A stretch of 42,408 bases of DNA from a virus (IMGVR_UViG_3300020258_000011:1-42408); one strand, 5' to 3'; counted from the stretch's first letter, positions 3,259 through 37,974 are shown. The notes: generated from the letters alone by a model not told the origin. Made by a program: numbers and translations.

Positions 3259-3626
3259 TGAAAAAATGCAAAAAGGGCAGCTACTATTGCTATACTGATA
3301 AGAAGTGTAAGCCCATTCCAAAAGGATTCAAGGTAGTTGGTCCTGCTGGATATCTTCGCAAGGAGAATGGACACACTCAAGATGATGATTCCAAGAATGG
3401 AAAAAAGAATGGTAGTGTTTCTAATGGTAATGGTAATGGCAATGGTGGTAATGGCAACGGGGGTCATTCTTCTGGATCCAACGGGTCAAGTGGAGGAGGA
3501 ATGAGTGAGGGTTGGTCTGACAAGTACAAAAAGTCAATTGACTGTAATAATCCCAAAGGGTTTTCTCAGAGAGCACACTGTCAAGGAAAGAAAAAGACTT
3601 TCAAAGAGTTTATGGGTGATATATAG
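3258..3626 (+). CDS. Hypothetical protein with GN-rich linker and Cys motifs
   Basis: TAATG-coupled ORF; C-terminal KKTFKEF. Confidence 0.65.
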   Translation: MKKCKKGSYYCYTDKKCKPIPKGFKVVGPAGYLRKENGHTQDDDSKNGKKNGSVSNGNGNGNGGNGNGGHSSGSNGSSGGGMSEGWSDKYKKSIDCNNPKGFSQRAHCQGKKKTFKEFMGDI

Positions 3627-3650
3627 AGTACAATACCATATGAGGTTATT

Positions 3651-3851
3651 ATGCTCTCTATTCTACTTCCACTTGCATCTAAGATTATCACTGATGCAGT
3701 AAACAAGATTCCTGAGAATGAAGAACTGGGTGAGAAACTGGTTGAGATTTGCCTCGTAATCTTGGGCAAAGCAGTCAAGTTGACTAAGACTGAAATGGAT
3801 GATCAACTTCTTGAGGTTGTAACCAAGGCTATTAAGGCAAGAGAAGAATGA
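3651..3851 (+). CDS. Hypothetical protein
   Basis: GAGG SD before ATG; followed by a terminator. Confidence 0.7.
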   Translation: MLSILLPLASKIITDAVNKIPENEELGEKLVEICLVILGKAVKLTKTEMDDQLLEVVTKAIKAREE

Positions 3852-3857
3852 TAAATG

Positions 3858-3883
3858 GGAGATCCTATGGGTCTCCTATTTTT
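3858..3883 (+). terminator. Rho-independent terminator
   Basis: GGAGATCC-TAT-GGGTCTCC stem followed by a T-rich tract. Confidence 0.65.
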
Positions 3884-3890
3884 ATAAATA
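3883..3890 (+). promoter_or_regulatory. T4-type late promoter TATAAATA
   Basis: Exact T4 gp55 consensus upstream of the ORF at 3926. Confidence 0.75.
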
Positions 3891-3925
3891 TTTGATAGCA
3901 AAGTAAATCTTATAGGAACCAAGAC

Positions 3926-4843: not shown

Positions 4844-5147
4844 AGACAAAATTGATAGGGTAATCAATGCATTTCGTTCAGCAATGTATAATGAATTCAG
4901 TGTCTCTGAGGAAGGCATGGTGGCAAATCCTCCTGGGGGATCTGGCGGATTTAGTGGTTCCTCCCCTGCTAATGGCCCTACTGCTGGTTATGATTCAACC
5001 CTTAAGTTTGATGGTCGCAACAAGTTTGTAAGAAAGGCTATCAAAGATTTGATGGATAGAAGAGAGAAGAGAGCAGAGAGAAAAGCAAAGAAGAAGGCAT
5101 TAGATTACAATCCCTACTTCAAACCACAAAATGGAAGATCAAGTTAA
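4836..5147 (+). CDS. Hypothetical protein
   Basis: Overlapping ORF in operon. Confidence 0.65.
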   Translation: MDKDKIDRVINAFRSAMYNEFSVSEEGMVANPPGGSGGFSGSSPANGPTAGYDSTLKFDGRNKFVRKAIKDLMDRREKRAERKAKKKALDYNPYFKPQNGRSS

Positions 5148-5511
5148 GATTGCATTAGTAGAACAAAAGATAGAAGATTTGAAGCCAGTGATTCTGAAGA
5201 TAGATTCTGCTATTGAAAAATTATCTGAGGTAAATATAACAGTTAGCAGAATGCTTGCTGTCCATGAAGAGCGAATATCAAAGCAAGAGGAAATTGACAC
5301 CGTACTATTTGCAAAAATTGACAAACTCCGTGATAAAATGGACTCAGATCATGACAGTGTGTTGTCAAGATTACGTCAATTAGAGAAGAGAATGTGGATG
5401 TTTATGGGTGCCATAGCAGTAATATCCTTTGCAGTCAATAGTGGCAATCTCATTACAAAGGTCTTGACTCTTCAAGATTATCCACCTACAATAGAAAGGA
5501 ATATGAACTGA
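5131..5511 (+). CDS. Coiled-coil protein with a C-terminal TM helix
   Basis: Heptad-like N-terminus, hydrophobic MWMFMGAIAVISFAV; adjacent to primase. Confidence 0.7.
   Translation: MEDQVKIALVEQKIEDLKPVILKIDSAIEKLSEVNITVSRMLAVHEERISKQEEIDTVLFAKIDKLRDKMDSDHDSVLSRLRQLEKRMWMFMGAIAVISFAVNSGNLITKVLTLQDYPPTIERNMN
5464..5492 (+). promoter_or_regulatory. Sigma70-type early promoter for primase-nrdAB
   Basis: TTGACT-17-TACAAT. Confidence 0.7.
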
Positions 5512-5516: not shown

Positions 5517-6506
5517 ATGGATTATATTGATGTGAAATACATCAATTTGATTTCTTCAAGACTATCAAAGTTCAAGAGAGTAAAACCTAACCTCTACAAT
5601 TGTAGATGCCCTATCTGTGGAGACTCACAGAAGAATAAGAATAAGGCAAGAGGTTACTTTTACAGAATCAAGAACAATAGCAACTACAAGTGTCACAACT
5701 GTGGTGTCAATATGTCTCTCAATAATTTCTTGAAAGAGATTGACCCAGAGACACACAAGGAGTATGTCTTTGAGAAGTTCAAGGAAGGTCACACTGGTAA
5801 GAACTTTGTGACTGAATCTCCTGAGGATGTATTCAAGAATCTTGCAACCAAACCTACCTTCAAGAAGAAGGTGAAGATTGACTTGCCTGATGCTTTTGAT
5901 GTTGATAGGTCCAAGGCATACCTTAATGACAGAGCAATCTTCTCTGGGGAGTTCTACTATGCTGAAAATTTCAAAAAGTTTATAAACATTATCAAACCTG
6001 ATACCTTTGATAGTATCAAGTATGGTGAAGAAAGAATTGTTATTCCTCTATACTATGAGGGAAAACTGATAGGGGTTCAGGGCAGAGCACTGTCTACAAA
6101 CCCTATTAAATACTTAACCATCATGTTGGATGATGATGCTCCCAAAATCTATGGACTCGACAGAATCAACACAGAAAGACCAATCTACATCATTGAAGGA
6201 CCATTTGACTCCACGTTCGTGGAAAACAGCATTGCCATGTGTGGGGCTGATGTTGATATTGGGTCGTTTGGTTGGAGCGATTATATTTGGGTTTATGATA
6301 ATGAACCTAGGAACAGAGAGATCACAAACAGAATCTCCAAAACAATTGATAGAGGAGAGAAGGTAGTCATCTGGCCATCCAACATTAAGGAGAAGGATCT
6401 AAATGATATGATCCTTGCTGGACATCATGTTCAGAAGATAGTAGAATCAAACACACACTCTGGTTTAGAAGCAAAACTTAAGTTCAACACCTGGAAAAGA
6501 ATATGA
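5517..6506 (+). CDS. gp61: DNA primase (T4 gp61-like)
   Basis: CPICGDS...CHNC zinc finger, EGPFDS TOPRIM motif, YDNEPRN, KDLND. Confidence 0.95.
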   Translation: MDYIDVKYINLISSRLSKFKRVKPNLYNCRCPICGDSQKNKNKARGYFYRIKNNSNYKCHNCGVNMSLNNFLKEIDPETHKEYVFEKFKEGHTGKNFVTESPEDVFKNLATKPTFKKKVKIDLPDAFDVDRSKAYLNDRAIFSGEFYYAENFKKFINIIKPDTFDSIKYGEERIVIPLYYEGKLIGVQGRALSTNPIKYLTIMLDDDAPKIYGLDRINTERPIYIIEGPFDSTFVENSIAMCGADVDIGSFGWSDYIWVYDNEPRNREITNRISKTIDRGEKVVIWPSNIKEKDLNDMILAGHHVQKIVESNTHSGLEAKLKFNTWKRI

Positions 6507-8803
6507 GTAACGGTACAAAGGTTAAAAAGAGAGATGGTAGAATTGAGTCTCTTGATCTAGATAAGATGCATCTTATGGTTCAAGAGGCATGTGAGGGTCT
6601 TGCAGGTGTCTCTGCCAGTCAGGTGGAGATGACTTCTGGTATTCAGTTTTATGATGGGATTACAACAGCAGAGATTCAAGAAATCCTGATTAAGAGTGCT
6701 TCTGACCTGATTGACTTAGAGCATCCTAACTATCAGTTTGTTGCTGCTAGGTTGCTTCTGTTTGCTATTAGAAAGCAGTTGTATGGTAAGGTACGTGAAT
6801 TGCCTGCCCTTTCAGATCATGTAACTGCCTGTGCTTATGATGGAATCTATGACAAAGATATCTTTGTAAATTATTCTCTGGAAGAGATTAATAAGGCAGA
6901 AACATTCATTGATCATGATCGTGATTTCCTCTTCACATATGCTGGATTGAGGCAAGTTGCAGATAAATATCTTGTGCAGGATCGTAGTTCAGGAAAGGTC
7001 TACGAGACTCCCCAATTCATGTATATTATGATTGCACTGACAATCTTCCGTGACTATCCAAAGGACACAAGGATGTCCTATGTCAAGAGGTACTATGATG
7101 CAATCTCCAAGCACAGACTCAACATCCCAACGCCAATCATGGCAGGGGTCAGAACCCCACTTAGACAATTTGCTAGCTGTGTTCTTGTTGATGTTGATGA
7201 CACCCTCGATTCTATCTTTAGCTCTGATATGGCTATTGGCAGATACGTTGCACAGAGGGCGGGCATCGGCATCAATGCAGGCAGAATCCGTGGCATCAAC
7301 TCTAAAATCAGAGGTGGAGAAGTTCAACACACAGGCGTTGTACCTTTCCTTAAAAAGTTTGAATCAACTGTCCGCTGCTGTACACAAAATGGAATACGAG
7401 GTGGCTCAGCGACTGTCCACTTCCCAATCTGGCACCAAGAAATAGAGGATATCCTTGTACTTAAGAACAATAAAGGGACGGAAGATAACCGTGTCAGAAA
7501 ACTTGACTACAGCATCCAATTATCTAAACTCTTCTATGAGAGGTTCATTAAGGATCAAGAGATTAGTCTCTTCTCTCCACACGACGTTCCAGGTCTCTAT
7601 GATGCTTTTGGGACTGATAGGTTTGATCAACTATATCTGGATTACGAACAAGATGAGTCTGTTCCTAGAAAGACGATTGGGGGTCAAGATCTTATTCTGA
7701 GTCTCCTCAAGGAGAGAGCAGAGACAGGTCGCATCTACATCATGAACATTGATCACTGCAACTCTCATTCCTCTTTCAAGGACAAGGTGAACATGTCCAA
7801 CCTGTGTCAAGAGATTACTCTTCCCACAGACCCTATCAACCATATTGATGATGAGATGCCTGGTGAGATTGCTCTCTGCATTCTCTCTGCCATCAATGTA
7901 GGCAAGGTCAAGTCTGATGATGAGTTGGAGGATCTTTGTGATCTTTCAGTCAGAGGACTGGAGGAACTGATTGACTATCAGGAGTATCCTGTGAGAGCAG
8001 CAGAGGTTGCTACAAAGGCACGTAGATCTCTTGGAGTAGGATTTATTGGTCTTGCCCACTATCTGGCAAAACTTGGGTTCTCTTATGGTTCTCAGGAAGC
8101 ATGGGATGCAGTTCATGGATTGTCTGAATCCTTCCAGTATTATCTTCTCAAGTCCTCTAATCAGATTGCAAAAGAAAAGGGACATTGTGAGTACTTTGGT
8201 AGAACAAAGTATGCTGATGGTATCTTACCAATTGATACATATAAGAGGGAAGTTGATGAAATCACTAGTGAGGGTTTAGTACATGACTGGGAATCTCTTA
8301 GATCATCTATCAATGAATATGGTCTCAGGCACTCAACACTGTCCGCACAAATGCCTTCAGAGAGCAGTTCCGTTGTGTCAAACGCAACAAATGGTATTGA
8401 ACCACCTAGAGACTACTTGTCCATTAAAAAAAGTAAGAAAGGACCCCTTAAGCAGATTGTTCCACAGTATGCTACCCTGAAGAATAACTACACACTTCTG
8501 TGGGAGATGCCTGATAACACTGGTTACATAAATGTGGTGTCTGTGATGCAGAAATTCTTTGATCAGGCCATATCTGGTAACTGGAGTTACAATCCAGAGA
8601 ACTATCCTGATAATGAGGTTCCTGTTTCTGTAATGGCAAATGATCTTTTGACTACATATAAGTATGGATGGAAGACTTCTTACTACCAGAATACTTATGA
8701 CATCAAGACTGATGAGGTGGTTGAAGATAAGTCTAAGTTAGACAATTTACTAGAAGAACTATCACAAACAGAGGAGGGAGAGTGTGAATCCTGTGCAGTT
8801 TAA
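6503..8803 (+). CDS. nrdA: Ribonucleotide reductase class Ia alpha subunit
   Basis: ATP cone (VKKRDG), PTPIMAG, ASC, SNLCQEI, C-terminal CESC. Confidence 0.97.
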   Translation: MSNGTKVKKRDGRIESLDLDKMHLMVQEACEGLAGVSASQVEMTSGIQFYDGITTAEIQEILIKSASDLIDLEHPNYQFVAARLLLFAIRKQLYGKVRELPALSDHVTACAYDGIYDKDIFVNYSLEEINKAETFIDHDRDFLFTYAGLRQVADKYLVQDRSSGKVYETPQFMYIMIALTIFRDYPKDTRMSYVKRYYDAISKHRLNIPTPIMAGVRTPLRQFASCVLVDVDDTLDSIFSSDMAIGRYVAQRAGIGINAGRIRGINSKIRGGEVQHTGVVPFLKKFESTVRCCTQNGIRGGSATVHFPIWHQEIEDILVLKNNKGTEDNRVRKLDYSIQLSKLFYERFIKDQEISLFSPHDVPGLYDAFGTDRFDQLYLDYEQDESVPRKTIGGQDLILSLLKERAETGRIYIMNIDHCNSHSSFKDKVNMSNLCQEITLPTDPINHIDDEMPGEIALCILSAINVGKVKSDDELEDLCDLSVRGLEELIDYQEYPVRAAEVATKARRSLGVGFIGLAHYLAKLGFSYGSQEAWDAVHGLSESFQYYLLKSSNQIAKEKGHCEYFGRTKYADGILPIDTYKREVDEITSEGLVHDWESLRSSINEYGLRHSTLSAQMPSESSSVVSNATNGIEPPRDYLSIKKSKKGPLKQIVPQYATLKNNYTLLWEMPDNTGYINVVSVMQKFFDQAISGNWSYNPENYPDNEVPVSVMANDLLTTYKYGWKTSYYQNTYDIKTDEVVEDKSKLDNLLEELSQTEEGECESCAV

Positions 8804-9977
8804 AGTGTCCTCAATGGATGAGAACGTGAAGAGTCAAGTTAAGGGTATGACTGTGTTCAACCCTGAAGCACACAACACAAAGAAACAACCAATGTTTTTT
8901 GGTAAACCACTGGGAGTTCAAAGATACGATTCATATAAGTATCCTATCTTTGAGAAACTAACAACTCAGCAACTGGGATATTTCTGGAGACCTGAGGAGG
9001 TCTCTCTTCAGAAAGATCGTGGTGACTACCAGTCACTGCGTCCTGAGCAGAAGCATATCTATACTTCTAATCTGAAGTATCAAATTATGCTTGACTCCAT
9101 CCAAGGACGTGGTCCTGGTATGGCATTCATTCCCTACTGCTCCTTACCTGAATTGGAAGCATGTATGGAGGTCTGGGGGTTCATGGAGATGATCCATAGT
9201 CGCTCCTATACATATATTATCAAGAATGTTTATTCAGACCCCTCTGAGGTCTTTGATAAGATTGTCACTGATGAACGCATTCTTGAGCGTGCCAAGAGTG
9301 TCACTGAGTCCTATGATGATTTCATCAACAGTGCTCAGCAGTGGGGCAATGGTAACCTGTGGAAGGAAGACTTCCGTGGTACATATACCTCACAGACAGA
9401 TATCAGAGAAGTCAAAAGAAAACTTTATAGGGCAGTTGCCAATGTCAATATCTTGGAAGGAATCCGCTTTTATGTTTCTTTTGCTTGCAGCTTTGCTTTT
9501 GGTGAACTTAAACTCATGGAAGGTTCAGCAAAAATTATCTCCCTTATTGCCAGGGACGAAAACCAACATCTCGCTATAACTCAGAACATTCTGAACAAGT
9601 GGAGAGATGGTGATGACCCTGATATGAAGACCATTGCCAAGGAAGAGGAAGAGTGGGTCTATGCAATGTTTGATAGAACAGTCAATGAAGAGAAGAGATG
9701 GGCAGACTATCTGTTCAGAGATGGTTCAATGATTGGTCTCAATGACACACTTCTGAAGAAGTATGTTGAGTGGGTTGCCAATCGTAGGATGAAGGCACTA
9801 CATTTGAAGCCTGCATATGATGTTGCAGCAAAGAACAATCCCCTCCCCTGGACACAGCACTGGATCTCTTCTAAGGGTCTCCAAGTTGCACCTCAGGAGA
9901 CAGAGGTAGAGTCTTATGTTGTTGGAGGTATTAAGCAAGATGTCAAGAAAGACACCTTCTCTGGATTCCAACTCTAG
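8784..9977 (+). CDS. nrdB: Ribonucleotide reductase class Ia beta subunit
   Basis: FWRPEE, EMIHSRSY, LEGIRFY, RDENQH diiron motifs; APQETE tail. Confidence 0.97.
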   Translation: MNPVQFKVSSMDENVKSQVKGMTVFNPEAHNTKKQPMFFGKPLGVQRYDSYKYPIFEKLTTQQLGYFWRPEEVSLQKDRGDYQSLRPEQKHIYTSNLKYQIMLDSIQGRGPGMAFIPYCSLPELEACMEVWGFMEMIHSRSYTYIIKNVYSDPSEVFDKIVTDERILERAKSVTESYDDFINSAQQWGNGNLWKEDFRGTYTSQTDIREVKRKLYRAVANVNILEGIRFYVSFACSFAFGELKLMEGSAKIISLIARDENQHLAITQNILNKWRDGDDPDMKTIAKEEEEWVYAMFDRTVNEEKRWADYLFRDGSMIGLNDTLLKKYVEWVANRRMKALHLKPAYDVAAKNNPLPWTQHWISSKGLQVAPQETEVESYVVGGIKQDVKKDTFSGFQL

Positions 9978-10026: not shown

Positions 10027-10033
10027 CTAAATA
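10027..10033 (+). promoter_or_regulatory. Late promoter variant CTAAATA
   Basis: TAAATA core followed by GAGGAG SD and ATG at 10048. Confidence 0.55.
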
Positions 10034-10047
10034 ATGAGGAGAGTATT

Positions 10048-10392
10048 ATGACTAAGTGGAAGAAAAAGGTAAAGAATATCCTGAGTACCCCAATCCCTGG
10101 ACATATTGTGACAGGATCTTTGACGGGTCTCTTATTGGGGATAACTGGGGCTTTGTTTATCGTATTACCTGTAACCCCACAGAGAAGCAATACATTGGAA
10201 GAAAGTATTTCTTTCAAAAACGAAAGCCTAGAAATTCTCCTAATAGTGGAAGGAGGAGGAGAGTTACAAGTGAAAGCAACTGGCGCAACTACTATGGAAG
10301 TTCTGACGAACTTAAGGCAGATGTTGCCAAATATGGGAGAGACGCTTTTACTAGAGAAATCCTCTCCTTACACACTACACCAGGGCGTGTAA
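10048..10392 (+). CDS. Putative membrane protein overlapping the GIY-YIG gene in the +1 frame
   Basis: GAGGAG SD 6 nt before ATG; basic N-terminus then a hydrophobic helix. Confidence 0.5.
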   Translation: MTKWKKKVKNILSTPIPGHIVTGSLTGLLLGITGALFIVLPVTPQRSNTLEESISFKNESLEILLIVEGGGELQVKATGATTMEVLTNLRQMLPNMGETLLLEKSSPYTLHQGV

Positions 10393-10547
10393 ACTATGAG
10401 GAGACCAGGCAGTTGTTTTTACACAATGTGCTGACTGAGAGCTTGACAGATGGGACACCTGCATTTTACAATAGCAATGTCCTAGGCCGTTACTATAGGA
10501 AAGATTATTTTGATTTTAGAGACACTACTAGCACTGACCCCAATTGA
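10056..10547 (+). CDS. GIY-YIG family nuclease-like protein
   Basis: GFVY-x10-YIG motif, Y.GS, FYN; GTG start. Confidence 0.75.
   Translation: MEEKGKEYPEYPNPWTYCDRIFDGSLIGDNWGFVYRITCNPTEKQYIGRKYFFQKRKPRNSPNSGRRRRVTSESNWRNYYGSSDELKADVAKYGRDAFTREILSLHTTPGRVNYEETRQLFLHNVLTESLTDGTPAFYNSNVLGRYYRKDYFDFRDTTSTDPN
10443..10472 (+). promoter_or_regulatory. Sigma70-type promoter
   Basis: TTGACA-18-TACAAT upstream of the hydrolase ORF. Confidence 0.5.
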
Positions 10548-10908
10548 CTACCACCATCTTGCACGCACAGTGCAGGTAGAAGCAGCACTTGGTACTATGG
10601 ATGAGTACTGTGTAGCAACTTCTATTCTCAACAGAGTCAAGTCACCCCTTTATCCTAATACTGTTGCTGATGTGGTCTATGCACCTGGACAGTATGAAGG
10701 ACTTACATATTACAGACCAGTTGCAAATCAAACTCTGGTCAATGAAATGAAATCAGAAGTAGGGAGAGCAAAGTTTCTTACTGCATATTCAATCATTGGA
10801 GATAGAACAGACTTTAAGGGGCAGACTATGCTTCCTTTCAGGGTATCAAGTCAAGACCCAATGTGTCATTCAAGAGGTAACTTCTTTCATTATCACTGGC
10901 AATCATGA
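10510..10908 (+). CDS. Cell wall hydrolase (SleB/Hydrolase_2 family)
   Basis: VEA...VA..ILNRV.S..YP.TV..VVY.PGQY motif. Confidence 0.85.
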   Translation: MILETLLALTPIDYHHLARTVQVEAALGTMDEYCVATSILNRVKSPLYPNTVADVVYAPGQYEGLTYYRPVANQTLVNEMKSEVGRAKFLTAYSIIGDRTDFKGQTMLPFRVSSQDPMCHSRGNFFHYHWQS

Positions 10909-11366: not shown

Positions 11367-11369
11367 CCT

Positions 11370-11443
11370 GGGTCCTTAGTTCAGATGGATAGAACAACAG
11401 CCTTCTAAGCTGTGTGTCACAGGTTCGAGTCCTGTAGGACCTG
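11370..11443 (+). tRNA. tRNA-Arg(TCT)
   Basis: Full cloverleaf; ACAGC-CTTCTAA-GCTGT anticodon arm; TTCGA T-loop. Confidence 0.95.
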
Positions 11444-11466
11444 TTAGAGAACTGATCATTCTCTAT

Positions 11467-11646
11467 AGGGTATGCCAGAATAACAGATGTGGTCATGCAC
11501 TCTGTAATGGTGAAGTAAGTCAGGGGTGGTGCCCGCTGTGGAAGCACAGAACTCTAACCAAGAGGACTGAAAAGAATGAGGATCACTATTACTACTAGTG
11601 AGACCATCTTCATTGAGGGTATAGTATAATCCCTCTACCCACCCAT
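11467..11646 (+). ncRNA. Multi-stem structured ncRNA between tRNAs (manA-type candidate)
   Basis: At least five hairpins, no credible ORF, tRNA-flanked; family identity unverified. Confidence 0.55.
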
Positions 11647-11719
11647 GCCATTCTAGCTCAGCTGGTAGAGCAGGTCTTTTGTAAAGATCAGGTCGCAGGT
11701 TCAAGTCCTGTGAATGGCT
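11647..11719 (+). tRNA. tRNA-Thr(TGT)
   Basis: Cloverleaf GCCATTC/GAATGGC; anticodon loop TTTGTAA. Confidence 0.95.
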
Positions 11720-11721
11720 CT

Positions 11722-11759
11722 GGGGATTGGTACACCTCCACCCACCAGTATCAATCCCC
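11722..11759 (+). other. 12-bp hairpin with a C-rich loop (ACCTCCACCCACCA)
   Basis: GGGGATTGGTAC/GTATCAATCCCC stem fills the Thr-Gly tRNA spacer. Confidence 0.7.
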
Positions 11760-11762
11760 TCT

Positions 11763-11834
11763 GCGGATGTAGTTCAGTGGTAGAACGTCAGCCTTCCAAG
11801 CTGAATGTCAGGGGTTCAAGTCCCCTTATCCGCT
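11763..11834 (+). tRNA. tRNA-Gly(TCC)
   Basis: Cloverleaf GCGGATG/TATCCGC; TCAGC-CTTCCAA-GCTGA. Confidence 0.95.
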
Positions 11835-11849
11835 TGTCCTCTTTATATT

Positions 11850-12020
11850 ATGGACCCTGTAAAAATCTTACTTTTAATATCAGATTTAGAGGGGAGTCAC
11901 CATCACCTTAGAATAAATGGTTTTGATGAGGACAAAGATACAATCAGAGAAATCTGTAATAGATACTACAAACTCTATTTCAAACTCTGTAAAGAACAAG
12001 GGAGAAATCCTTACGGGTGA
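11850..12020 (+). CDS. Hypothetical protein (56 aa, MDPVKILLL...)
   Basis: ATG after tRNA-Gly; stop codon lies inside tRNA-Val. Confidence 0.6.
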   Translation: MDPVKILLLISDLEGSHHHLRINGFDEDKDTIREICNRYYKLYFKLCKEQGRNPYG

Positions 12021-12086
12021 ATAACTCAGTGGTAGAGTTCCTCCTTTACACGGAGGCAGTCGGGGGTTCAAGTCCCTCTTCACCCA
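12015..12086 (+). tRNA. tRNA-Val(TAC)
   Basis: Cloverleaf GGGTGAA/TTCACCC; CCTCC-TTTACAC-GGAGG. Confidence 0.95.
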
Positions 12087-12111
12087 TTCTTGATAGGAGG
12101 ACCATGGTCCA

Positions 12112-12360
12112 ATGCTTAAAGTCAGATGTAAGTCCTGTAACAGGGAGATTATTAGCTCAACCAAGACACAATCTTGTGGTTGTCCAAATATGCTAACAGT
12201 GAAGGAGGATAACATTACAGCGGTTGACCTAAATAAGGTCATTATGTTAAACTCAAACAAGGAAACCAAACAAAAAGGAGTCCTTACTTCTCAAGATCTT
12301 GCATACCAGGAAGAGAGAAGACATAGAAAAGTTCGTAAGTTGGACTTTGATATCAGATAG
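12112..12360 (+). CDS. Small Cys-motif (CxxC...CxC) hypothetical protein
   Basis: AGGAGG SD upstream; an in-frame ATG at 12103-12106 region was not resolved. Confidence 0.7.
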   Translation: MLKVRCKSCNREIISSTKTQSCGCPNMLTVKEDNITAVDLNKVIMLNSNKETKQKGVLTSQDLAYQEERRHRKVRKLDFDIR

Positions 12361-12543
12361 ATGCCTCACCGTATGCCTAAAATCAAACCAGAACATCTCC
12401 TCACTAAGAAAGAGTGTGAGAAAATGATTGATGCAGCAATAGACAGGCACAATAAAACTGCCACTGTAATCAGCGCATGTTTAGGATCAGTTCTCCTGTT
12501 CTTTTATGCAGATGGATTACTAAGAGTGGTTGGTTATTGGTAA
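12361..12543 (+). CDS. Small membrane protein
   Basis: C-terminal hydrophobic helix. Confidence 0.65.
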   Translation: MPHRMPKIKPEHLLTKKECEKMIDAAIDRHNKTATVISACLGSVLLFFYADGLLRVVGYW

Positions 12544-12544
12544 T

Positions 12545-12629
12545 GGAAGATTGGCAGAGTGGTTGATTGCGTTAGTCTTGAAAACTAATAAGGGTAATAC
12601 CTTCCAGGGTTCGAATCCCTGATCTTCCT
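12545..12629 (+). tRNA. tRNA-Ser(TGA)
   Basis: Cloverleaf with long variable arm; TTAGT-CTTGAAA-ACTAA. Confidence 0.93.
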
Positions 12630-12649
12630 CTATTATACATATAATAACT

Positions 12650-12820
12650 ATGGATTTTTACTCCGTGGAATACTGGCAAAAGAACTGGGAAACTCTTCTG
12701 GAAAGAGTAGAAGATGGTGAAACAATAGGTGTGGAAAATAGTAGGGGTGAGAGAGCAGTAATGACACCAGCGGATGATGAACTCATACGCATATACACAG
12801 ACCACAATGAAGGTTCCTGA
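12650..12820 (+). CDS. 56-aa protein resembling a Phd/YefM antitoxin N-terminal domain
   Basis: MDFYSVEYWQKNWETLLERVEDGETIGVENSRGERAVM pattern; below the ORF-track cutoff. Confidence 0.55.
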   Translation: MDFYSVEYWQKNWETLLERVEDGETIGVENSRGERAVMTPADDELIRIYTDHNEGS

Positions 12821-12892
12821 GGGACTGTCGCATATTGGTTAATGCTCACTGCTTATAACGGTGTAAACTGGGTTCAATTCCCAGCAGTCTCA
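12821..12892 (+). tRNA. tRNA-Ile(TAT)
   Basis: GGGACTG/CAGTCTC acceptor; CACTG-CTTATAA-CGGTG anticodon arm; TTCAATT T-loop. Confidence 0.85.
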
Positions 12893-12895
12893 CTG

Positions 12896-12968: not shown

Positions 12969-12993
12969 TAGGACAGATTCTTGTCTGTCCCTA

Positions 12994-13022
12994 TTGACTC
13001 ATAGAGTCCACTGTCCTATAAT
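12994..13022 (+). promoter_or_regulatory. Sigma70-type promoter
   Basis: TTGACT-17-TATAAT. Confidence 0.8.
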
Positions 13023-27566: not shown

Positions 27567-28507
27567 AGATTAGTATTATTGGACCCAACACTCCAATTCC
27601 ACCAAAGGGTTGGGGTGCTGTTGAATCATTGATCTGGGATATGAAACTCACACTGAGTCATCTAGGACATAGTGTTCAGATTGTAAATGTTGGTGATCCC
27701 AGAAAGATCATTCAAATGATTAATGAGTTTCGTCCTGACTTTGTTCACATCAACTATGATGATTGGGTTCCCATCTACCCTTATATTCAATATCCTAGTG
27801 CAGTAACCACACACTTTGCTTACATTGAACGCCCTGAAATGATGGGTGGTTATAGACAGAGAGTGTTTGATGAATTTGCTAGAATTAAACCTAATGTGTT
27901 TGGACTATCTGAGGGTATCAATGATATCTACCACAATCTTGCTGGCATTCCTAGAGAGAGATTGTTCTTGAATCCTAATGGTGTGAACCTGGAAAAGTTC
28001 AAGGTATCTTCTAACCCAACTAATGCAGATAGATCCATATATCTTGCCAAAGTTGATTCTAGGAAGAGACAGCACTTGTTCCAGAGTATTGATTCACTCT
28101 GGTATGCAGGTAACATTGCAGATAATAGATTTGATAAAGCAAAGAATTATCTGGGTGAGTGGGAAAAAGAGAAACTACATAGGATGCTTACCAGTTATGG
28201 TAATCTCGTCCTACTGTCTGATGGTGAAGCACACCCTCTAGTCTGTCCAGAGGCATTTTCTGCTGGTCTAGGGGTTGTCATCAGTCAATGGGCTGCTGCC
28301 AACCTAGATACCACCAAGGAGTTCATCACAGTCATTCCAGAAGAAAAGATCAATGATCTGGAATATGTGGAGCAAAAGATTATTGAGAACAGAGAGTACT
28401 CTGTAAATAATAGAGAAGAGATTCTGGACTATGCAAAACAGTTTGAATGGTCTAGAATACTGAGTGAATACTTCCTGCCAAACGTTGAAAAAGTGATTCA
28501 TGGATAG
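27563..28507 (+). CDS. Glycosyltransferase (GT4-like), tandem paralog
   Basis: Same motifs; shares EFITVIP.EK and NREYS..NREEI with the previous gene. Confidence 0.75.
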   Translation: MKISIIGPNTPIPPKGWGAVESLIWDMKLTLSHLGHSVQIVNVGDPRKIIQMINEFRPDFVHINYDDWVPIYPYIQYPSAVTTHFAYIERPEMMGGYRQRVFDEFARIKPNVFGLSEGINDIYHNLAGIPRERLFLNPNGVNLEKFKVSSNPTNADRSIYLAKVDSRKRQHLFQSIDSLWYAGNIADNRFDKAKNYLGEWEKEKLHRMLTSYGNLVLLSDGEAHPLVCPEAFSAGLGVVISQWAAANLDTTKEFITVIPEEKINDLEYVEQKIIENREYSVNNREEILDYAKQFEWSRILSEYFLPNVEKVIHG

Positions 28508-29327
28508 AGATAGAAACAAATCTGTATACAAACTGAAAGGCATTGGTCCTATCTACTGTATCAATCTTGATGCGCAACCAGAGAGATGGGAATACATGGA
28601 GGATCAGTTTAAGTATTGGGAAATTGAAAACTACAAGAGAGTCTCTGCTTATGATGGTAGGGATGATGACCTTGGGGATATTCTTAAAGGCAGGTATCCT
28701 GACCATATGTCTTCTGGTGAGATTGGTTGTACCACATCACACCTAAAAGCAATTAAGGATTTCTATTACAATACTGATGAACCTTATGCTATCATGATGG
28801 AGGATGATTGCAATCTGGATCTAGTCAGGTTCTGGAACTTTACATGGAAAGACTTCTACTGTAGAATTCCTTATGACTGGGATGTAGTGCAAATTGCAAT
28901 CATCTGCACAGGTGATTTGCATGTTAGGATTCATAAACGTTTTGTGAATGAGTTCTCAACTGCGTGCTATCTTATCACCAGGCACCATGCAAAGAAGATG
29001 ATTGATCTTCATTGCAGGGGAGATAAGTACAAACTGGATAATGGAGTCAAACCACGTCCTGTGGCTGATGACCTACTCTATAATTCAGGTAATACTTATT
29101 CTCTGCCTCTCCTTCTCTATCGTATTGAGTTGGGTTCTAGTATCCACCCAGAACATATTGATGTCTTCCATAAAGGCAATTATGAGTCACAGTTAAACTA
29201 TTGGCAACATCAGGGTTGCCAGCTGACTGCTGATCAACTGATGGATTTTGACCCTTACCTTGGTAGGGTCACACAACCAACTCAAAGGGAGGAAGAGAAA
29301 CTTCCAACATATGAGGAAGGTACTTGA
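28500..29327 (+). CDS. Glycosyltransferase family 25
   Basis: YCINL....ER, GEIGC..SH, MEDD. Confidence 0.88.
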   Translation: MDRDRNKSVYKLKGIGPIYCINLDAQPERWEYMEDQFKYWEIENYKRVSAYDGRDDDLGDILKGRYPDHMSSGEIGCTTSHLKAIKDFYYNTDEPYAIMMEDDCNLDLVRFWNFTWKDFYCRIPYDWDVVQIAIICTGDLHVRIHKRFVNEFSTACYLITRHHAKKMIDLHCRGDKYKLDNGVKPRPVADDLLYNSGNTYSLPLLLYRIELGSSIHPEHIDVFHKGNYESQLNYWQHQGCQLTADQLMDFDPYLGRVTQPTQREEEKLPTYEEGT

Positions 29328-29357: not shown

Positions 29358-29471
29358 CTTAACCTTTTGTCTTACAGTAATTTAAGTAACAAAAGGAAAC
29401 AAACAGAACCTAGTCGAGGTTCTTTTCATCTGTGGGTAACCATTCCACAAGTAAAAAACGAGGTAATTCCA

Positions 29472-29834
29472 ATGATCAAATCTGTATTCGCAGCTACTGC
29501 TGTTCTTTTCACTTCTGCAGGTGCTGCCCTTGCAGGTCCCTACGTCAATGTAGAAGCCAACTCTGGATGGGCTGGTTCTGACTACTCTGGCACTGTTACT
29601 GATGCTCACGTAGGATACGAAGGCGCTCTTGGTGATTCCGCTGCTTGGTACATCCAAGGTGGTCCTGCTCTTGTTGCCATTGATGGCGAAGAGACTGAGA
29701 CTGAATTCAGTGGTAAAACTGGTGCTTCAGTTGCTCTGACTGAATCCCTGTCTGCTTATGGTGAAGTCTCCTTCATCACTGGCGATGATGACAACAGCTA
29801 TGGAACCAAAGCTGGACTGAAGTTCAACTTCTGA
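29472..29834 (+). CDS. Small outer-membrane beta-barrel-like protein with signal peptide
   Basis: GAGG SD, signal peptide ending ALA, alternating beta pattern, C-terminal Phe (KFNF). Confidence 0.75.
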   Translation: MIKSVFAATAVLFTSAGAALAGPYVNVEANSGWAGSDYSGTVTDAHVGYEGALGDSAAWYIQGGPALVAIDGEETETEFSGKTGASVALTESLSAYGEVSFITGDDDNSYGTKAGLKFNF

Positions 29835-33108: not shown

Positions 33109-33254
33109 TTCTATTTGTTCGCCACTGGATGGAGTCACCACCAGCATTGGGGTTCTTAGCTTTTATTTTAATCTGTGTTCCTATCATTGGAATGGACTTA
33201 GTTCATAGATATAGATGGGAACATTGGGAACCATTTTACAAACAACATAAATGA
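33105..33254 (+). CDS. Small membrane protein (49 aa)
   Basis: TM helix, WEHWEPF tail, coupled at both ends. Confidence 0.55.
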   Translation: MILFVRHWMESPPALGFLAFILICVPIIGMDLVHRYRWEHWEPFYKQHK

Positions 33255-33460
33255 ATACAGCAGTCCTTTTAGCATGTTTATCACCCATTATTATAATTTT
33301 TATTATAATGAAGATAGTGGTGTTCTTTTCAGGAGTTTACTCTGAGGAAAAATATGTTGAATCAGAATCCAGAAAACCTCACGGACCCTACTTGGCAGAT
33401 GCATATGCAGATGTTGACGCAGAGGAAGAGGAGTATGGAGATCGCACAGATTATAGATGA
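33251..33460 (+). CDS. Small membrane protein
   Basis: N-terminal TM helix. Confidence 0.6.
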   Translation: MNTAVLLACLSPIIIIFIIMKIVVFFSGVYSEEKYVESESRKPHGPYLADAYADVDAEEEEYGDRTDYR

Positions 33461-33584
33461 TGCTCTCTATCAATACTATGTTGTGGAGCAAGGTAAAGAG
33501 GTTCCAAATTGGAGATACATAAAGGATCAAGATTGGTGGATTGAATATCTTGACTCTTTAGGTATCCCAAGAAGAAACCCATGA
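33435..33584 (+). CDS. Hypothetical protein (49 aa)
   Basis: ATG 33435 after GAGG-rich sequence. Confidence 0.55.
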   Translation: MEIAQIIDDALYQYYVVEQGKEVPNWRYIKDQDWWIEYLDSLGIPRRNP

Positions 33585-33787: not shown

Positions 33788-33989
33788 GGATTCTGAAAAA
33801 CTTTCAGAAGAACTTCGTGACAGAGTTCGTAAATTAGAACGCTGGGTCTGGGGTGCTGGTGCTGTCATATCTGCAGCAATCACAATTATTGGTTTAGCAA
33901 TGGCAGCAGATGCCAAGGAGGTTAACTATGGGGGCTATGACACCGCCAAGCAGGAAGAGTTGCTACAATTTCAGAGTAGTAGAGATTAA
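33717..33989 (+). CDS. Coiled-coil plus TM small protein
   Basis: GAGG SD; RVRKLERWVWGAGAVI. Confidence 0.6.
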   Translation: MSNQINQKDADQDQQIALLVHRIEDSEKLSEELRDRVRKLERWVWGAGAVISAAITIIGLAMAADAKEVNYGGYDTAKQEELLQFQSSRD

Positions 33990-34389
33990 TAGAGTAGTTG
34001 ATGGTGATACCATTGATGTAACTATTGATCTTGGATTTGATCTCTTTAAGAAGGAGAGAGTCAGAGTTGCTGGTGTTGATACTCCTGAGAAACGTACAAG
34101 AAATCTAGAGGAGAAAGAACTTGGAATTGACGCAACCTACTGGCTCAAAGAGAAATTGGAAGGTGCTGTGGCTGGTGATGATGAGCTCACTGTTAGGACT
34201 GAACTTGTTGGTGGCGTCGGTAAATATGGCCGTCTTCTTGGTTGGTTATACATTGGGGACTCAGACTTGTCCCTCAATGAGCAAATGATTGTAGAGGGTT
34301 ATGCTCATGCTTATGATGGTGGAACAAAGAACATGGATCTTGAAGCACTAAAAGAGATTAGAAGGGCACACGGAACACTGGTGGATTGA
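33928..34389 (+). CDS. Thermonuclease (SNase-like) family nuclease
   Basis: VVDGDTID, R.AGVDTPE, GKYGRLL; AAGGAGG SD. Confidence 0.85.
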   Translation: MGAMTPPSRKSCYNFRVVEINRVVDGDTIDVTIDLGFDLFKKERVRVAGVDTPEKRTRNLEEKELGIDATYWLKEKLEGAVAGDDELTVRTELVGGVGKYGRLLGWLYIGDSDLSLNEQMIVEGYAHAYDGGTKNMDLEALKEIRRAHGTLVD

Positions 34390-34842: not shown

Positions 34843-35060
34843 TTAATGGTGTAGCACTGTTCTCTGGTGTAGTATCTCTTGGTATTGTTGTTGGTGGATC
34901 ACTTCTTTATTTCAATAAAGATAACATTGTAGAAGGTGCTAAGGCACAGATTGCTGCATCAATCACAGCATCTATTCAAAATGCTTTACCAGGCATTGTG
35001 GATGCATCTGTGCCAGTTATCCCTGAAACAACTGGTCCTGCTATCCCCACATTCAGATGA
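34830..35060 (+). CDS. Membrane-anchored small protein
   Basis: N-terminal TM helix. Confidence 0.7.
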   Translation: MQKIINGVALFSGVVSLGIVVGGSLLYFNKDNIVEGAKAQIAASITASIQNALPGIVDASVPVIPETTGPAIPTFR

Positions 35061-35635
35061 CTCCTAAATCTCCCCTTAAGTGGTTTGCTATTGCTGTTGG
35101 TGGAACTGTGGCTGTTGCCCATATTGGCATCCTAGGTCACATTCTAAACCAAGATACTGGAGTAGCACAAACACCAACAATCAATATCCCTAGAGGTCCT
35201 TATTCATCTTATAGCATAAGAGCAGGTAAGGATGGATATGAGATTGAATATAGAGCAAATGATCCTACTATTCTAGAATCAGAAAGGACATTGGATCTAG
35301 ATCATGAAAGAAGAGGGTTGTTTGGGGGAGGAAGAGAACAAAGAACTGAAACCAGAAGAGATCAGTATACAATGGATGGTGTTAGGAATATAGGAGGTGA
35401 AATAGGTGAAGTGGGAAAGATCGCAAGTGTGAGCGCAGAGTGTATAGCGGCGGACGCTGGAGCACGATCTCAAGGTGCAATGGCAGGAACTAGTATTGCT
35501 GCTGGTGTTATTGTCCCTGCTGTTTCCAATATTCCTTATGTTGGGTGGTTAGCAAGTGGATGGGCTCTGTTGCTAGGACAACAAGCAGGTAGTTATGTTG
35601 GTGGTGAAGTAGGTTCTATCTTTAATGATTGCTAA
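35057..35635 (+). CDS. Membrane protein with a glycine-zipper-like C-terminus
   Basis: N-terminal TM; G/A-rich hydrophobic C-terminus; internal G_GGA_AAG site. Confidence 0.75.
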   Translation: MTPKSPLKWFAIAVGGTVAVAHIGILGHILNQDTGVAQTPTINIPRGPYSSYSIRAGKDGYEIEYRANDPTILESERTLDLDHERRGLFGGGREQRTETRRDQYTMDGVRNIGGEIGEVGKIASVSAECIAADAGARSQGAMAGTSIAAGVIVPAVSNIPYVGWLASGWALLLGQQAGSYVGGEVGSIFNDC

Positions 35636-36420
35636 TGGAAATAGGGGACATTCAAGTTAGAAATTTAGACATTCCTGATATACCAGTATTATTGTCTAAT
35701 CCATCTACAGCATTGCCACCTATCCCTCCTGTGGTTTTGGATATTGGTATACCTGTTGTAGATATGCCTGGTTGTATAGAGGCACATGAAAGTAACAGTA
35801 AATCAAATACGGTAGGTCAAGATGACGAAAATGGATTGGTTACGTATTGTGACGCTGATGTTCCCAGTTTTAATCCTATTTCTTATGAACCTGAAAACTT
35901 AGTCATCACAAGACCAACTCCTGTACCTAAAACAGATACAACTCCAGAACCAGAAGTAAACCCCAATATACCAAAGGCAGAGACACCACCAATACCTACC
36001 ATTCCAGATTGTCCTACTGATGTGCAGAAAGCACAAGAACCTGTAGGAACATATATTAATGGATACAGAGATAAGGTCACTGAGTATAAGTTAATTGATA
36101 ATATCTGTGTTCAAATCACAGAACCTGTACCCATCCCAGAGCAAGTATTAGTTGGTCTTCCTAGTGGAGGTCAGGTGGCACAGGTAGGTGGTATTGCTGT
36201 GATTGCAACTACATCTGCACTTCTTGCTAAACCATTAGCAGATATTCTTTTGAAAGCTGTCAAACCAGCAGTCAAGAAAATAATGAAAAAGATTGCTACT
36301 ATTAGGAAGAAACCTATTCCTGTGAAGTCGTCAGGGGAGCGCCGAGCAGAGCAGCGTCAGATGAACCACGCTGTGAAGGAACTGAGGTCTGTGTTCCCAA
36401 GGAAGAAGAAGAAGGGATAG
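35629..36420 (+). CDS. Pro-rich protein with C-terminal hydrophobic and basic segments
   Basis: Long ORF with paired Cys; overlaps a convergent gene by 107 nt. Confidence 0.75.
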   Translation: MLMEIGDIQVRNLDIPDIPVLLSNPSTALPPIPPVVLDIGIPVVDMPGCIEAHESNSKSNTVGQDDENGLVTYCDADVPSFNPISYEPENLVITRPTPVPKTDTTPEPEVNPNIPKAETPPIPTIPDCPTDVQKAQEPVGTYINGYRDKVTEYKLIDNICVQITEPVPIPEQVLVGLPSGGQVAQVGGIAVIATTSALLAKPLADILLKAVKPAVKKIMKKIATIRKKPIPVKSSGERRAEQRQMNHAVKELRSVFPRKKKKG

Positions 36421-37198
36421 GGTGAGTGTGAGGAACCATAAAGTTCACTCCTCTAACTTGTACATCAGCACATATCCTTGCATACTTTGTGCCAGGTGCA
36501 AATCTGATTCCTGCCTTTAACAACTCACCACAGTTCTTAAGTCTTGCAATCTCAAAGTCCAATCTCTTATTGGCAGTTGTTTGTTGCACTAATGCAATGT
36601 TAGATGATGCTGCTTCTTTACAGAGTTGTTGTAACTTCTTATCAGTGGGTCTACTCCATGTCATTGAGAAACCTGCTGACAAGTTGTAGTTATCCTTCTG
36701 TCCTGTTCTAGTGGGTTGTTGCCATAAAATGGAACCTGGATTATCTGGTGCTCCATCTTCATTCAAATCTCTCATGTCATACACAGGTTCATTGTAATAG
36801 GGTTCCCAAGGTTTTTGTTGAGAAACACTACCTGTTACAAAGGGTGTGAAATTTAATGTGGGACCTTGACATTGTATTCCATTTCCATACGTATTGGTAA
36901 TGTAGGGTCCTTGAAGGACTTGAATGGCTTGGTTGGTAACAGAGCCAGAGCTATTAGCGACGGGAGAAGCAGTAGCAGACACACCACCAACAGTTTCTGC
37001 AATAGAGTGTGAAGGTAATACTGCACTTAAGATTACTGGGAGAAGATAGAAACTGTATCTGTGACGCTTTGTATTTCTGTTTCTCTTTGAATAATTGTGT
37101 GTTGACTTAAACCTGGGCCTTGATAAGTTTCTGTGAACTGAAATGCTGCCCCTGGTGTTGTCTGTGTGAATGTTGGTCTTCTGTTGATTCCTGTCCAT
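36314..37198 (-). CDS. Secreted hypothetical protein; start uncertain
   Basis: Signal-peptide-like segment YLLPVILSAVLPSHSIA; paired Cys. Confidence 0.7.
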   Translation of the reverse strand: MDRNQQKTNIHTDNTRGSISVHRNLSRPRFKSTHNYSKRNRNTKRHRYSFYLLPVILSAVLPSHSIAETVGGVSATASPVANSSGSVTNQAIQVLQGPYITNTYGNGIQCQGPTLNFTPFVTGSVSQQKPWEPYYNEPVYDMRDLNEDGAPDNPGSILWQQPTRTGQKDNYNLSAGFSMTWSRPTDKKLQQLCKEAASSNIALVQQTTANKRLDFEIARLKNCGELLKAGIRFAPGTKYARICADVQVRGVNFMVPHTHPIPSSSSLGTQTSVPSQRGSSDAALLGAPLTTSQE

Positions 37199-37470
37199 GA
37201 TGAGGTCACTCCATCAATAGTTACATTAGTTGATCCAGTACCAGGGGAAAGATTACCTGATGCTGATATGCCACTTCCTGTAGCAGAGTATTGATACCCT
37301 GTATTATAGTCCATGCTATTAATAGTTTCAGTTACCTTAGAAGTGGTTTCCGTGTGGCTCGTCATTGAGCCTTGGGTGAAGTTTGGGATAACAGGGACTG
37401 CCTTCACTGACAGTCCACTCATCATACTTAAGATCAATCCAAGACTAAATGCCTTTGTTAATCCATTCAT
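37033..37470 (-). CDS. Secreted S/T/G-rich beta protein
   Basis: Signal peptide ending VKA. Confidence 0.75.
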   Translation of the reverse strand: MNGLTKAFSLGLILSMMSGLSVKAVPVIPNFTQGSMTSHTETTSKVTETINSMDYNTGYQYSATGSGISASGNLSPGTGSTNVTIDGVTSSWTGINRRPTFTQTTPGAAFQFTETYQGPGLSQHTIIQRETEIQSVTDTVSIFSQ

Positions 37471-37482
37471 ATTTACCCCAGT

Positions 37483-37974
37483 TTACTTTACAGTAATTTC
37501 TGTAACAAATTGTCCTGTAGCACTAGTGCCTGCGCCTCCAGCTGTCAATGCCATAGTCCCAGCAGTATTGAGAGTACCAGCGAGAGACCCAGCCACACCG
37601 CCAGCAGTGGTTGTGACACTTCCAAACGCGGGCAAGGAGGCAGCCACACCACTAGTGATGGCTGTATTTCCTGGTATTGCGTCTCCCTGATTAAAGGACT
37701 CGGACAGTGTAAATGCACTTCCTGCTGTGGTTTGGGCATAAGTACCTTCACTTAAGGTAGCAGCGGCAGTTGCACTACTAGGGGCAGTAAGACCACCCAT
37801 AGTAGAAGCAGTAATATTACTACCACTGACTGAATAAGTACTTCCAAGTCTGGTGGCTTGAGAAGCAGCAGCATCAACTGTAAGTTGAACACTAGTTGAA
37901 ATCTTATGTGTAAGATCGGCATTTGCAGGTGCCGCCATCAAAAACATACCCAAAAGCAAACTAGCTTTTCTCAT
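37483..37974 (-). CDS. Secreted A/S/T/G-rich beta protein
   Basis: Signal peptide ending ANA; CTAAATA late motif upstream on the minus strand. Confidence 0.8.
   Translation of the reverse strand: MRKASLLLGMFLMAAPANADLTHKISTSVQLTVDAAASQATRLGSTYSVSGSNITASTMGGLTAPSSATAAATLSEGTYAQTTAGSAFTLSESFNQGDAIPGNTAITSGVAASLPAFGSVTTTAGGVAGSLAGTLNTAGTMALTAGGAGTSATGQFVTEITVK

Follow-up and report, generated by a model that had tools for sequence, protein, structure and literature searches.

The viral sequence IMGVR_UViG_3300020258_000011:1-42408, a stretch of 42,408 nucleotides referred to here as the window, represents part of the genome of a T4-like cyanomyophage. Its main genes were placed by PHROG and Pfam matches, and its closest records are Synechococcus phages with about 77% DNA identity. 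Three open reading frames (ORFs) that lie inside conserved genes of this fragment and are read in the +1 frame of their hosts, two in nrdA (here called nA1 and nA2) and one in the gene for primase gp61, are very probably dual-coding, overprinted genes, as suggested by the way these sequences vary among homologs. Constraint acts on both frames at once: stops have been purged from the nested frames, the start of nA1 turns over among alternative codons, and there are host codons whose third position is fixed and whose first is variable, which is the signature of a second frame. In addition, two of the nested ORFs are preceded by TAAATA boxes that are conserved at synonymous positions. Translation of the nested frames is likely and would yield small de novo proteins, most of them predicted single-pass membrane proteins, and the TAAATA boxes suggest that these are likely made late in infection. 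A sequence-only reading of the window had proposed a hidden layer of eight such +1 ORFs, and all eight are open and in the +1 frame of their host genes (Table 1). The signals cited for them are also present, namely TAAATA at 5231, 6107, 6964 and 10028 and the Shine–Dalgarno (SD)-like motifs AGAGGT, GAGGAG and AGAGGAG at 7087, 10036 and 34108. Stop depletion, start turnover and internal TAAATA boxes upheld the idea of an overprinted layer, and two more ORFs (nA2 and one in nrdB) were added to it, while the ORFs at 5264 and 37545 and the long form of that at 10048 proved to be restricted to clades.

The evidence comes from homologs retained if at least 70% of the protein was covered or, in a second round, at 65% coverage and 45-99% identity. 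Removal of near-duplicates reduced the sets for nrdA from 142 to 120, primase from 153 to 126, nrdB from 133 to 115 and epimerase from 78 to 69, and those of the second round from 111 to 72 for the SNase-like nuclease, from 136 to 77 for the 37483 gene and from 104 to 65 for the 35629 gene. From scans of viral contigs, nrdA, primase, epimerase, SNase and the 37483 gene were each represented by the best 80 loci among about 600 matches, the 29367 gene by the best 80 among 317, and the 35629 gene by its full 59, and the sets are biased toward close relatives because best matches were selected. Expected stops were computed for each homolog from its own protein and its own codon usage. Saturated subsets comprise the rows with four-fold sites near saturation (mean identity about 0.4), which are 56 of 120 for nA1, 26 of 126 for primase and 39 of 115 for nrdB, and a nested residue was counted as constrained when at least 85% of homologs share it at a site where the host protein would permit no more than 55%.

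The strongest case is nA1, which is open in 119 of the 120 homologs against 5.2 expected, with 2 stops where 365 would be expected and none against 187 in the saturated subset. On the nrdA tree its 16 stop-risk sites changed state once (0.06 each), compared with 1274 changes (13.4 each) at the 95 such sites outside the ORFs. Each of its start sites underwent 16-29 parsimony changes on that tree, and no homolog lacks an ATG at all three of 7080, 7095 and 7098 (0/120, 25.5 expected); the AGG arginine codon that builds the SD covaries with the ATG at 7095 (48/9/14/49). Beyond what NrdA forces, 32 of 117 nA1 residues are fixed, against 12 of 553 for the rest of nrdA. Proline 37, inside the predicted transmembrane (TM) segment, reaches 0.98 against 0.17 under host forcing, and the host codon at 7202 is ACC in 101 homologs and TCC in 18, with a free first base and a fixed third. 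The predicted architecture is a polar N-terminus of about 28 polar residues, a TM segment with a selected Thr-Pro and a long amphipathic helix; an AlphaFold2 model gives two helices (pLDDT 67, pTM 0.25), and Lys and Arg lie toward the C side in 58% of homologs and toward the N side in 14%, a charge bias that leans N-out/C-in. The earlier caution that +1 frames are hydrophobic by default was partly true, as hydropathy in nA1 is only slightly above the recoded null (2.25 vs 1.93). The TAAATA at 6964, once put forward as the late promoter of nA1, is not conserved (58/119, 42 expected).

Support for nA2 as a second nested gene in nrdA is strong. Its frame is open in 113/120 homologs with 12 stops against 235 expected (6 against 119 in the saturated subset), its ten stop-risk sites show eight state changes on the tree, and the ATG at 8283 is kept in 112 of 120 homologs. 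That ATG makes up 0.97 of ATG plus ACG, the second highest of 25 comparable nrdA sites, which is modest evidence when taken alone. Fifteen of 66 residues are fixed beyond host forcing; among the four cysteines of the predicted protein, C20, C32 and C46 stand at 0.93-0.97 where the host would give 0.11-0.21, and the host codon at 8339 (CTG in 77, TTG in 39) again has a free first and a fixed third base. Hydropathy lies below the recoded null (0.3 vs 1.34), the C-terminal length varies so that the product would have 65-116 amino acids, and the structure model (pLDDT 47) is too low for use.

The putative primase ORF is likewise strongly supported, being open in 110 of 126 homologs against 4.5 expected, with 41 stops against 386 (11 against 77 in the saturated subset) and an ATG within 6127-6156 in 124 of the 126. 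Its Kyte–Doolittle hydropathy is 2.23 against 1.65 when recoded, and it leans N-in, with only about 20 residues C-terminal of the predicted TM segment. The TAAATA ahead of it at 6107 is kept in 107/126 homologs (28.7 expected). A second box, at 5231, is present in 52/90 homologs against 10.7 expected and co-occurs with an open 5264 frame (52/0/1/37), essentially within one clade; the 5264 frame itself is open in 53/87 homologs against 7.8 expected, with 127 stops against 227, and synonymous identity within the open clade is 0.72 inside the ORF and 0.50 outside. A third box, before the 10048 ORF, was seen by eye in many homologs. Apparently intergenic boxes in the window include CTAAATA and TTAAATA forms, and the part of PMC2984593 available gives the late-promoter motif of these phages as NATAAATA.

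By tblastn the nA1, nA2 and primase frames were matched in 451, 405 and 67 phage records, respectively, numbers that follow in part from host conservation and do not imply openness; among the 60, 12 and 25 matches listed, only one host-gene annotation lies under each. No free-standing homolog of nA1 or of the primase ORF was recognised, the 16 inspected of 136 and of 44 matches, respectively, resembling the nested frame or frameshift chimeras of the host protein, and the two show no relationship to each other.

Table 1. Nested ORFs, associated signals and host or neighbouring genes in the window (ORF products and TM segments are predicted).
Feature	Position	Strand	Description or basis
nA1	7095-7445	+	+1 ORF in nrdA, 116 amino acids (aa; 121 from 7080); strongest case
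nA1 start region	7080-7100	+	interchangeable +1 ATGs 7080, 7095, 7098; SD-like AGAGGT at 7087
nA2	8283-8480	+	+1 ORF in nrdA, 65 aa, soluble, four Cys, no TM; outside the earlier list
Primase ORF	6130-6366	+	+1 ORF in primase gp61, 78 aa, one TM
TAAATA late-promoter core	6107-6112	+	inside primase, 18-23 nt before nested ATG run
TAAATA late-promoter core	5231-5236	+	on synonymous sites of DUF7201 gene
5264 ORF	5264-5383	+	+1 ORF in DUF7201 gene, 39 aa, basic, no TM; clade-restricted
TAAATA and GAGGAG SD	10028-10047	+	intergenic, before 10048 ORF
nrdB ORF	9442-9579	+	+1 ORF, 45 aa, one TM; outside the earlier list
10048 ORF	10048-10392	+	+1 ORF over GIY-YIG gene, 114 aa, N-terminal TM; phrog_8965
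Epimerase ORF	14580-14843	+	+1 ORF, 87 aa, one TM
SNase ORF	34121-34288	+	+1 ORF; conserved part from about ATG 34178, 36 aa, TM
35822 ORF	35822-35902	+	+1 ORF in phrog_570 gene, 26-aa TM peptide
37545 ORF	37545-37751	-	+1 ORF in phrog_564 gene, 68 aa; young clade only; weakest case
DUF7201 gene	5131-5511	+	
Primase gp61	5517-6506	+	PHROG/Pfam
nrdA	6503-8803	+	PHROG/Pfam
nrdB	8784-9977	+	PHROG/Pfam
GIY-YIG (SegE-like) gene	10056-10547	+	PHROG/Pfam
Cell-wall hydrolase	10510-10908		PHROG/Pfam
Nucleotide-sugar epimerase	14012-15118	+	PHROG/Pfam
SNase-like nuclease	33910-34389	+	PHROG/Pfam
phrog_570 gene	35629-36420	+	
phrog_564 gene	37483-37974	-	

Controls set these depletions apart. The +1 ORFs at 7455-7700 and 8046-8279 of nrdA were rejected as nested genes, with stop ratios of 0.78 and 1.1, the lowest ratio of 381 control windows was 0.52, and no sustained depletion was seen along primase, nrdA or nrdB in the +2 frame or in the antisense frames. 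For the ORFs outside nrdA, stop-state changes per codon were 3 to 8 times lower inside than outside; both clade-restricted ORFs tested on a tree had zero such changes inside, a count that for 5264 is zero partly by construction. Synonymous change was 20-35% lower in the primase ORF, nA1, nA2, the nrdB ORF and the epimerase ORF, the drop in the SNase and 35822 ORFs was not significant, and across the ORFs hydropathy departs from the recoded null in both directions. The alignment of homologs, which the sequence-only reading had named as its check, gave both +1-frame stop depletion, strongest in the nrdA and primase ORFs, and synonymous-site constraint.

Among the remaining candidates, the SNase ORF has moderate to good support, being open in 51/72 homologs with 51 stops against 198 expected and a hydropathy of 1.93 against 1.2 recoded; its start was first placed at TTG 34121, and a start near 34178 is more likely, given 17 stops against 127 over 34172-34288 and 34 against 71 over 34121-34171. 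Support for the putative nrdB ORF is moderate (38 stops against 125 for 9427-9579 in the saturated homologs, and 24 stop-state changes over 38 codons against 709 over 339 on the tree); it is broken in S-PM2, S-WAM2 and ACG-2014i, and the full-length form 9226-9579, open in 0/115, was rejected. The epimerase ORF, also moderately supported as a candidate, is open in 44/69 homologs against 24.2 expected, with 29 stops against 77, the same terminal stop in 64, a ratio of first- to second-position change of 3.39 against 1.51, a hydropathy of 2.54 against 2.08 recoded and an inconsistent start (ATG in 52/69 only). For the 35822 ORF support is moderate to weak: 45/65 homologs are open, with 20 stops against 48.8, and its synonymous rate shows no drop on the tree. 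Over the 10057-10392 interval as a whole there is no depletion (256 stops against 245 expected), and 10110-10240 has 25 against 69.5; the predicted TM part of the 10048 ORF is widespread, the long form with its own upstream start occurs in about 7 of 45 rows shown, and hydropathy is 2.0 against 1.25 recoded. This ORF matches phrog_8965 (E 2e-27), and its earlier description as unannotated did not hold, since it is a hypothetical protein in S-WAM2 (P29B0810_180) and ACG-2014i, beside or instead of the GIY-YIG gene. The 37545 ORF is open in 37/77 homologs (28/28 at an identity of at least 72%, 9/49 below), with 109 stops against 154 and a start site that varies; the case is weak because the clade is young, with a median four-fold identity of 0.70 and unsaturated.

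The window has a CpG observed/expected ratio of 0.18, with 1 CpG in 1-840 and 0 in 5517-6150, as the sequence-only reading had counted. Its inference that CpG patches flag nested ORFs fared less well: when a patch is defined as at least 4 CpG per 150 nt, 8 of 19 overlap an ORF of the earlier list, and CpG is neither a specific nor a sensitive flag. The eight listed intervals contain 47 CpG against 12.4 expected, a comparison that is circular since they were picked on CpG. Each nested codon has a third base of the host in its middle position, where C gives Thr, Ala, Ser or Pro and T gives Met, Val or Leu. The patches arise because a second frame that needs residues of the first group imposes C|G where host codons meet. 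In the homolog alignments, C at Y|G boundaries roughly doubles inside the ORFs, its share rising from 0.15-0.19 to 0.30-0.37 in four genes and from 0.12 to 0.24 in epimerase. CpG therefore marks constrained sequence of any kind, and other patches sit on tRNAs, the wcaG RNA, a likely -1 frameshift site and overlaps of annotated genes; those in the 29367-29834, hli, 31100, petE and 13257 genes were rejected as nested ORFs, their alternative frames being without stop depletion. The ORF at 3367 (45 aa) is Met-rich over a Gly-Asp repeat, and its host gene has 0 homologs among 584 loci.

The phylogenetic range of the two nrdA ORFs was traced on a FastTree tree of 44 nrdA rows with long outgroup branches. 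Within the cyanomyophage clade, 25 of 26 rows have both frames open. Of 9 sister rows, 6 keep nA1 open, the pelagiphage Mosig among them; an open nA2 without nA1 occurs in another group of 5 rows, and in RB69 and fHe-Yen9-04 both are closed. The range is narrower than that of the host frame, as tested on the tree for the nrdA ORFs and on few genomes for those in primase and nrdB, and this lineage restriction of the nrdA ORFs is consistent with overprinting. The laboratory models Syn9 and S-PM2 have open frames for nA1, nA2 and the primase ORF. Overprinting itself is already known, as in lambda Rz1, phiX174 E and cyanophage nblA. Full-text literature searches, whose coverage leaves out most subscription papers, turned up no account of ORFs nested in the primase or nrdA genes of cyanomyophages, and the accessible portions of PMC10976474 and PMC3037559 do not mention them.

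A possible sequence of events can be proposed. The late sigma factor (gp55) would start transcripts inside the DUF7201 gene and the primase gene, so placing the 5264 and 6130 ORFs at the 5' ends of messages that would continue across nrdA and nrdB, on which ribosomes may initiate internally at nA1, nA2 and the nrdB ORF. Most of the products would insert in the membrane, and the most plausible site of their action would be the host envelope, at the time of lysis; nA1, with one kinked TM segment and a cytoplasmic tail, could by this guess be a phiX174 E-like or holin-type protein. A lysis role for at least one nested ORF is offered tentatively, as a guess prompted by the late boxes, the single TM segments, the selected TM proline of nA1, the persistence of nA1 in a phage of a non-cyanobacterial host, the neighbouring cell-wall hydrolase and the lack of recognised spanins. 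According to the part of PMC2984593 available, cyanophages are without r genes, and S-PM2, Syn9, S-SM2 and others are listed as spanin-less in the accessible part of PMC6139136, where large genomes were not scanned in all frames. The broadest form of the proposal, in which dispersed de novo genes overprinted on replication genes, with late promoters on synonymous sites, would supply the lysis functions missing from T4-like cyanophages together with a larger set of late membrane proteins, and nA1 would be a family-wide holin- or E-like lysis timer inside ribonucleotide reductase, is rather unlikely.

Several results weigh against these interpretations. In the window, +1 ORFs of at least 60 aa number 10 against 11.0 expected when the 41 host genes are recoded 200 times, and TM-bearing +1 ORFs of at least 78 aa number 4 against 1.9 (P=0.09, window only); the comparison with codon-shuffled controls, also suggested beforehand, gave no excess in a single genome and clear stop depletion in homologs, which alone show more than chance. 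At the level of single residues, only nA1 and nA2 show clear constraint: fixed residues number 1/79 in the primase ORF, 1/51 in nrdB, 0/40 in 5264, 0/27 in 35822 and 0/111 in 10060-10392, and the ORFs other than nA1 and nA2 have 0-6 constrained sites, near background except perhaps SNase (4/56). When changes at first and second positions are compared, only the epimerase and nrdB ORFs give a positive result, and primase and 35822 deviate slightly the other way. The association of the 6107 box with an open primase ORF is not significant (p=0.07), the box is absent in S-PM2 and Syn9, where the ORF is open, and it may serve nrdA and nrdB. In ACG-2014f, nested within the cyanomyophage clade, nA1, nA2 and the primase ORF have all been lost, and they are therefore not essential family-wide. 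Apart from the 10048 ORF, none of the ten ORFs matched a family in PHROG or Pfam, or one in NCBIfam above the cutoff (for nrdB, the 9442 form was searched against NCBIfam and the longer 9226 form against PHROGs and Pfam), and PDB sequence and BFVD fold searches gave no match. As for lysis, no homology to holin families was found in PHROG, Pfam and NCBIfam, nor to phiX174 E in PHROG, Pfam and PDB; a scan of the six frames of the window for the lipobox pattern found none, leaving no o-spanin or u-spanin candidate there and no linked o-spanin gene for an i-spanin reading. The charge bias of nA1 and of the nrdB and epimerase ORFs is opposite to that of an i-spanin, and two members, nA2 and 5264, are soluble, without a predicted TM segment.

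There is about an even chance that the nested genes are real and serve something other than lysis, such as host takeover, superinfection exclusion, control of the thylakoid or energy, or anti-defence, with nA2 perhaps a metal-binding regulator. De novo viral proteins are often accessory, and the set is heterogeneous, as it combines soluble nA2 and 5264 with TM peptides that apparently face either way, nA1 bears no relation to the primase ORF, nA1 and nA2 differ in outgroup range, several ORFs are clade-restricted and three were lost in ACG-2014f. Exclusion and takeover genes are usually early, however, and the TAAATA boxes suggest late timing for three ORFs; moreover, nA1 is retained in a phage of a non-photosynthetic host, and its presence in Mosig is easier to reconcile with a general role at the envelope than with one in photosynthesis. 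It is improbable that the frames are open for a reason unconnected with protein (translational coupling, tolerance of frameshifted ribosomes or mRNA stability) and the peptides are by-products. Most nested peptides do show little residue-level constraint and the synonymous slowdown is about 20-35% only, but the TM proline of nA1 and three cysteines of nA2 are fixed against codon bias, start and SD covary in nA1, and hydropathy lies off the null both ways. Chance and shared ancestry, by which T-ending codons give long hydrophobic +1 frames that relatives inherit, would account for the want of a genome-wide +1 ORF excess and for an nA1 TM segment largely present in recoded sequence, and are plausible for 37545-37751, given its young clade, and partly for 35822; they are excluded for nA1, nA2 and the primase, nrdB and SNase ORFs by saturated subsets, control windows and tree counts, and as a general account are very improbable. 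The least probable account, a conserved RNA structure or DNA site that limits synonymous positions and loses stops as a side effect, could draw on the short fixed-codon runs at 7178-7222 and 8360-8380 but is opposed by a consensus folding index of at most 0.19 and no Rfam match in nA1 and nA2, by freely varying first bases and by a depletion specific to the +1 frame over the whole ORF.

Several other features of the window were observed. The DUF7201 homolog of S-SCSM1 (L001:2583-3014) is labelled 'holin-like protein', and contigs of RNA run X1, a run that covers the region of the nested ORFs, pile up at 5017-5233, with a summed depth of 161 against 2-10 nearby and a short back-joint at 5059-5092. 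At the end of primase, just before nrdA, 6418-6445 (+) holds a cluster of fixed synonymous choices that includes a +1 stop at 6442 in 98% of homologs against 30% expected, and is possibly a promoter or regulatory site. The phrog_605 gene (35057-35635) has an in-frame slippery heptamer G_GGA_AAG in 63/63 homologs, accepted by the search at any position within the gene and placed by the alignment at 35413-35490 (+); the -1 frame is open for 22-28 codons, with 0 stops against 2.14 expected per sequence, and ends in a conserved basic, Cys-bearing tail. It is likely a programmed -1 frameshift site, and accounts for the CpG patch at 35311-35590. Two long, conserved overlaps of annotated-type genes also combine stop depletion with little synonymous variation, namely a 166-nt same-strand overlap at 37033-37198 (36314-37470, minus strand) and the antisense 3'-end overlap at 36314-36420 with the 35629-36420 (+) gene. 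The small PHROG genes 33251-33460 and 33354-33584 (+) share about 34 codons at 33354-33460, one being read in the +1 frame of the other, and there neither frame has been closed by stops; a short antisense stop depletion lies in a glycosyltransferase at 15130-15190 (-), in 11 homologs only. An N6/N4 DNA methyltransferase (PF01555) is encoded at 22-792 (+) in this genome of window-wide CpG avoidance (0.18), and 14012-29327 (+) is a 15-kb cluster of epimerases, glycosyltransferases and methyltransferases in which CpG is very sparse beyond about 15200. Seven tRNAs, including tRNA-Ile(TAT), lie with RNA motifs at 11369-13638 and 42312-42407, the motifs being manA (11445-11645), wcaG (13551-13638) and PhotoRC-II.

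Phages of this kind kill the ocean's main primary producers on a large scale, and cyanophage lysis genes that have so far escaped recognition may, if the proposal is true, be among the nested membrane ORFs. Ten candidate hidden genes in 42 kb would extrapolate to dozens per genome. As nrdA is both a marker gene and the textbook case of a metabolic gene, the roughly one quarter of it that appears dual-coding here would bias trees and ratios of nonsynonymous to synonymous change (dN/dS). With the nrdA and primase ORFs open in Syn9 and S-PM2, the question is directly testable in laboratory models.

Known systems offer partial parallels. The lysis protein E of phiX174, a 91-aa inhibitor of MraY, is overprinted in gene D, and nA1 resembles it in being overprinted in an alternative frame of the same strand and in having one predicted TM segment followed by a likely cytoplasmic tail. 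A further likeness, by analogy only, is the TM proline, Pro21 in E (according to the part of PMC5039524 available) and the selected Pro37 in nA1. In contrast to E, nA1 has about 28 polar residues before the TM segment and no sequence match, and many such ORFs, some with putative internal late promoters, would be found in a 200-kb double-stranded DNA phage. The lambda Rz/Rz1 pair is an embedded two-component spanin with one gene in the +1 frame of the other (PMC6139136, in the part available), and nA1 shares the +1 embedding and, in its TM segment and long helix, resembles an i-spanin; here, however, the host genes are replication enzymes, the window has no lipobox, and the N-out/C-in charge bias is the opposite. 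The family phrog_8965 is identical to the 10048 ORF and has no function attached, the other nine ORFs being without a family. In T7-like cyanophages nblA, a host-derived gene of a known family, overlaps the exonuclease gene terminally by up to 110 nt (PMC12695635, in the part available). This is likewise a small gene of marine cyanophages overlooked through its overlap with a replication gene, whereas the ORFs described here are fully nested, apparently de novo, and carried by T4-like phages.

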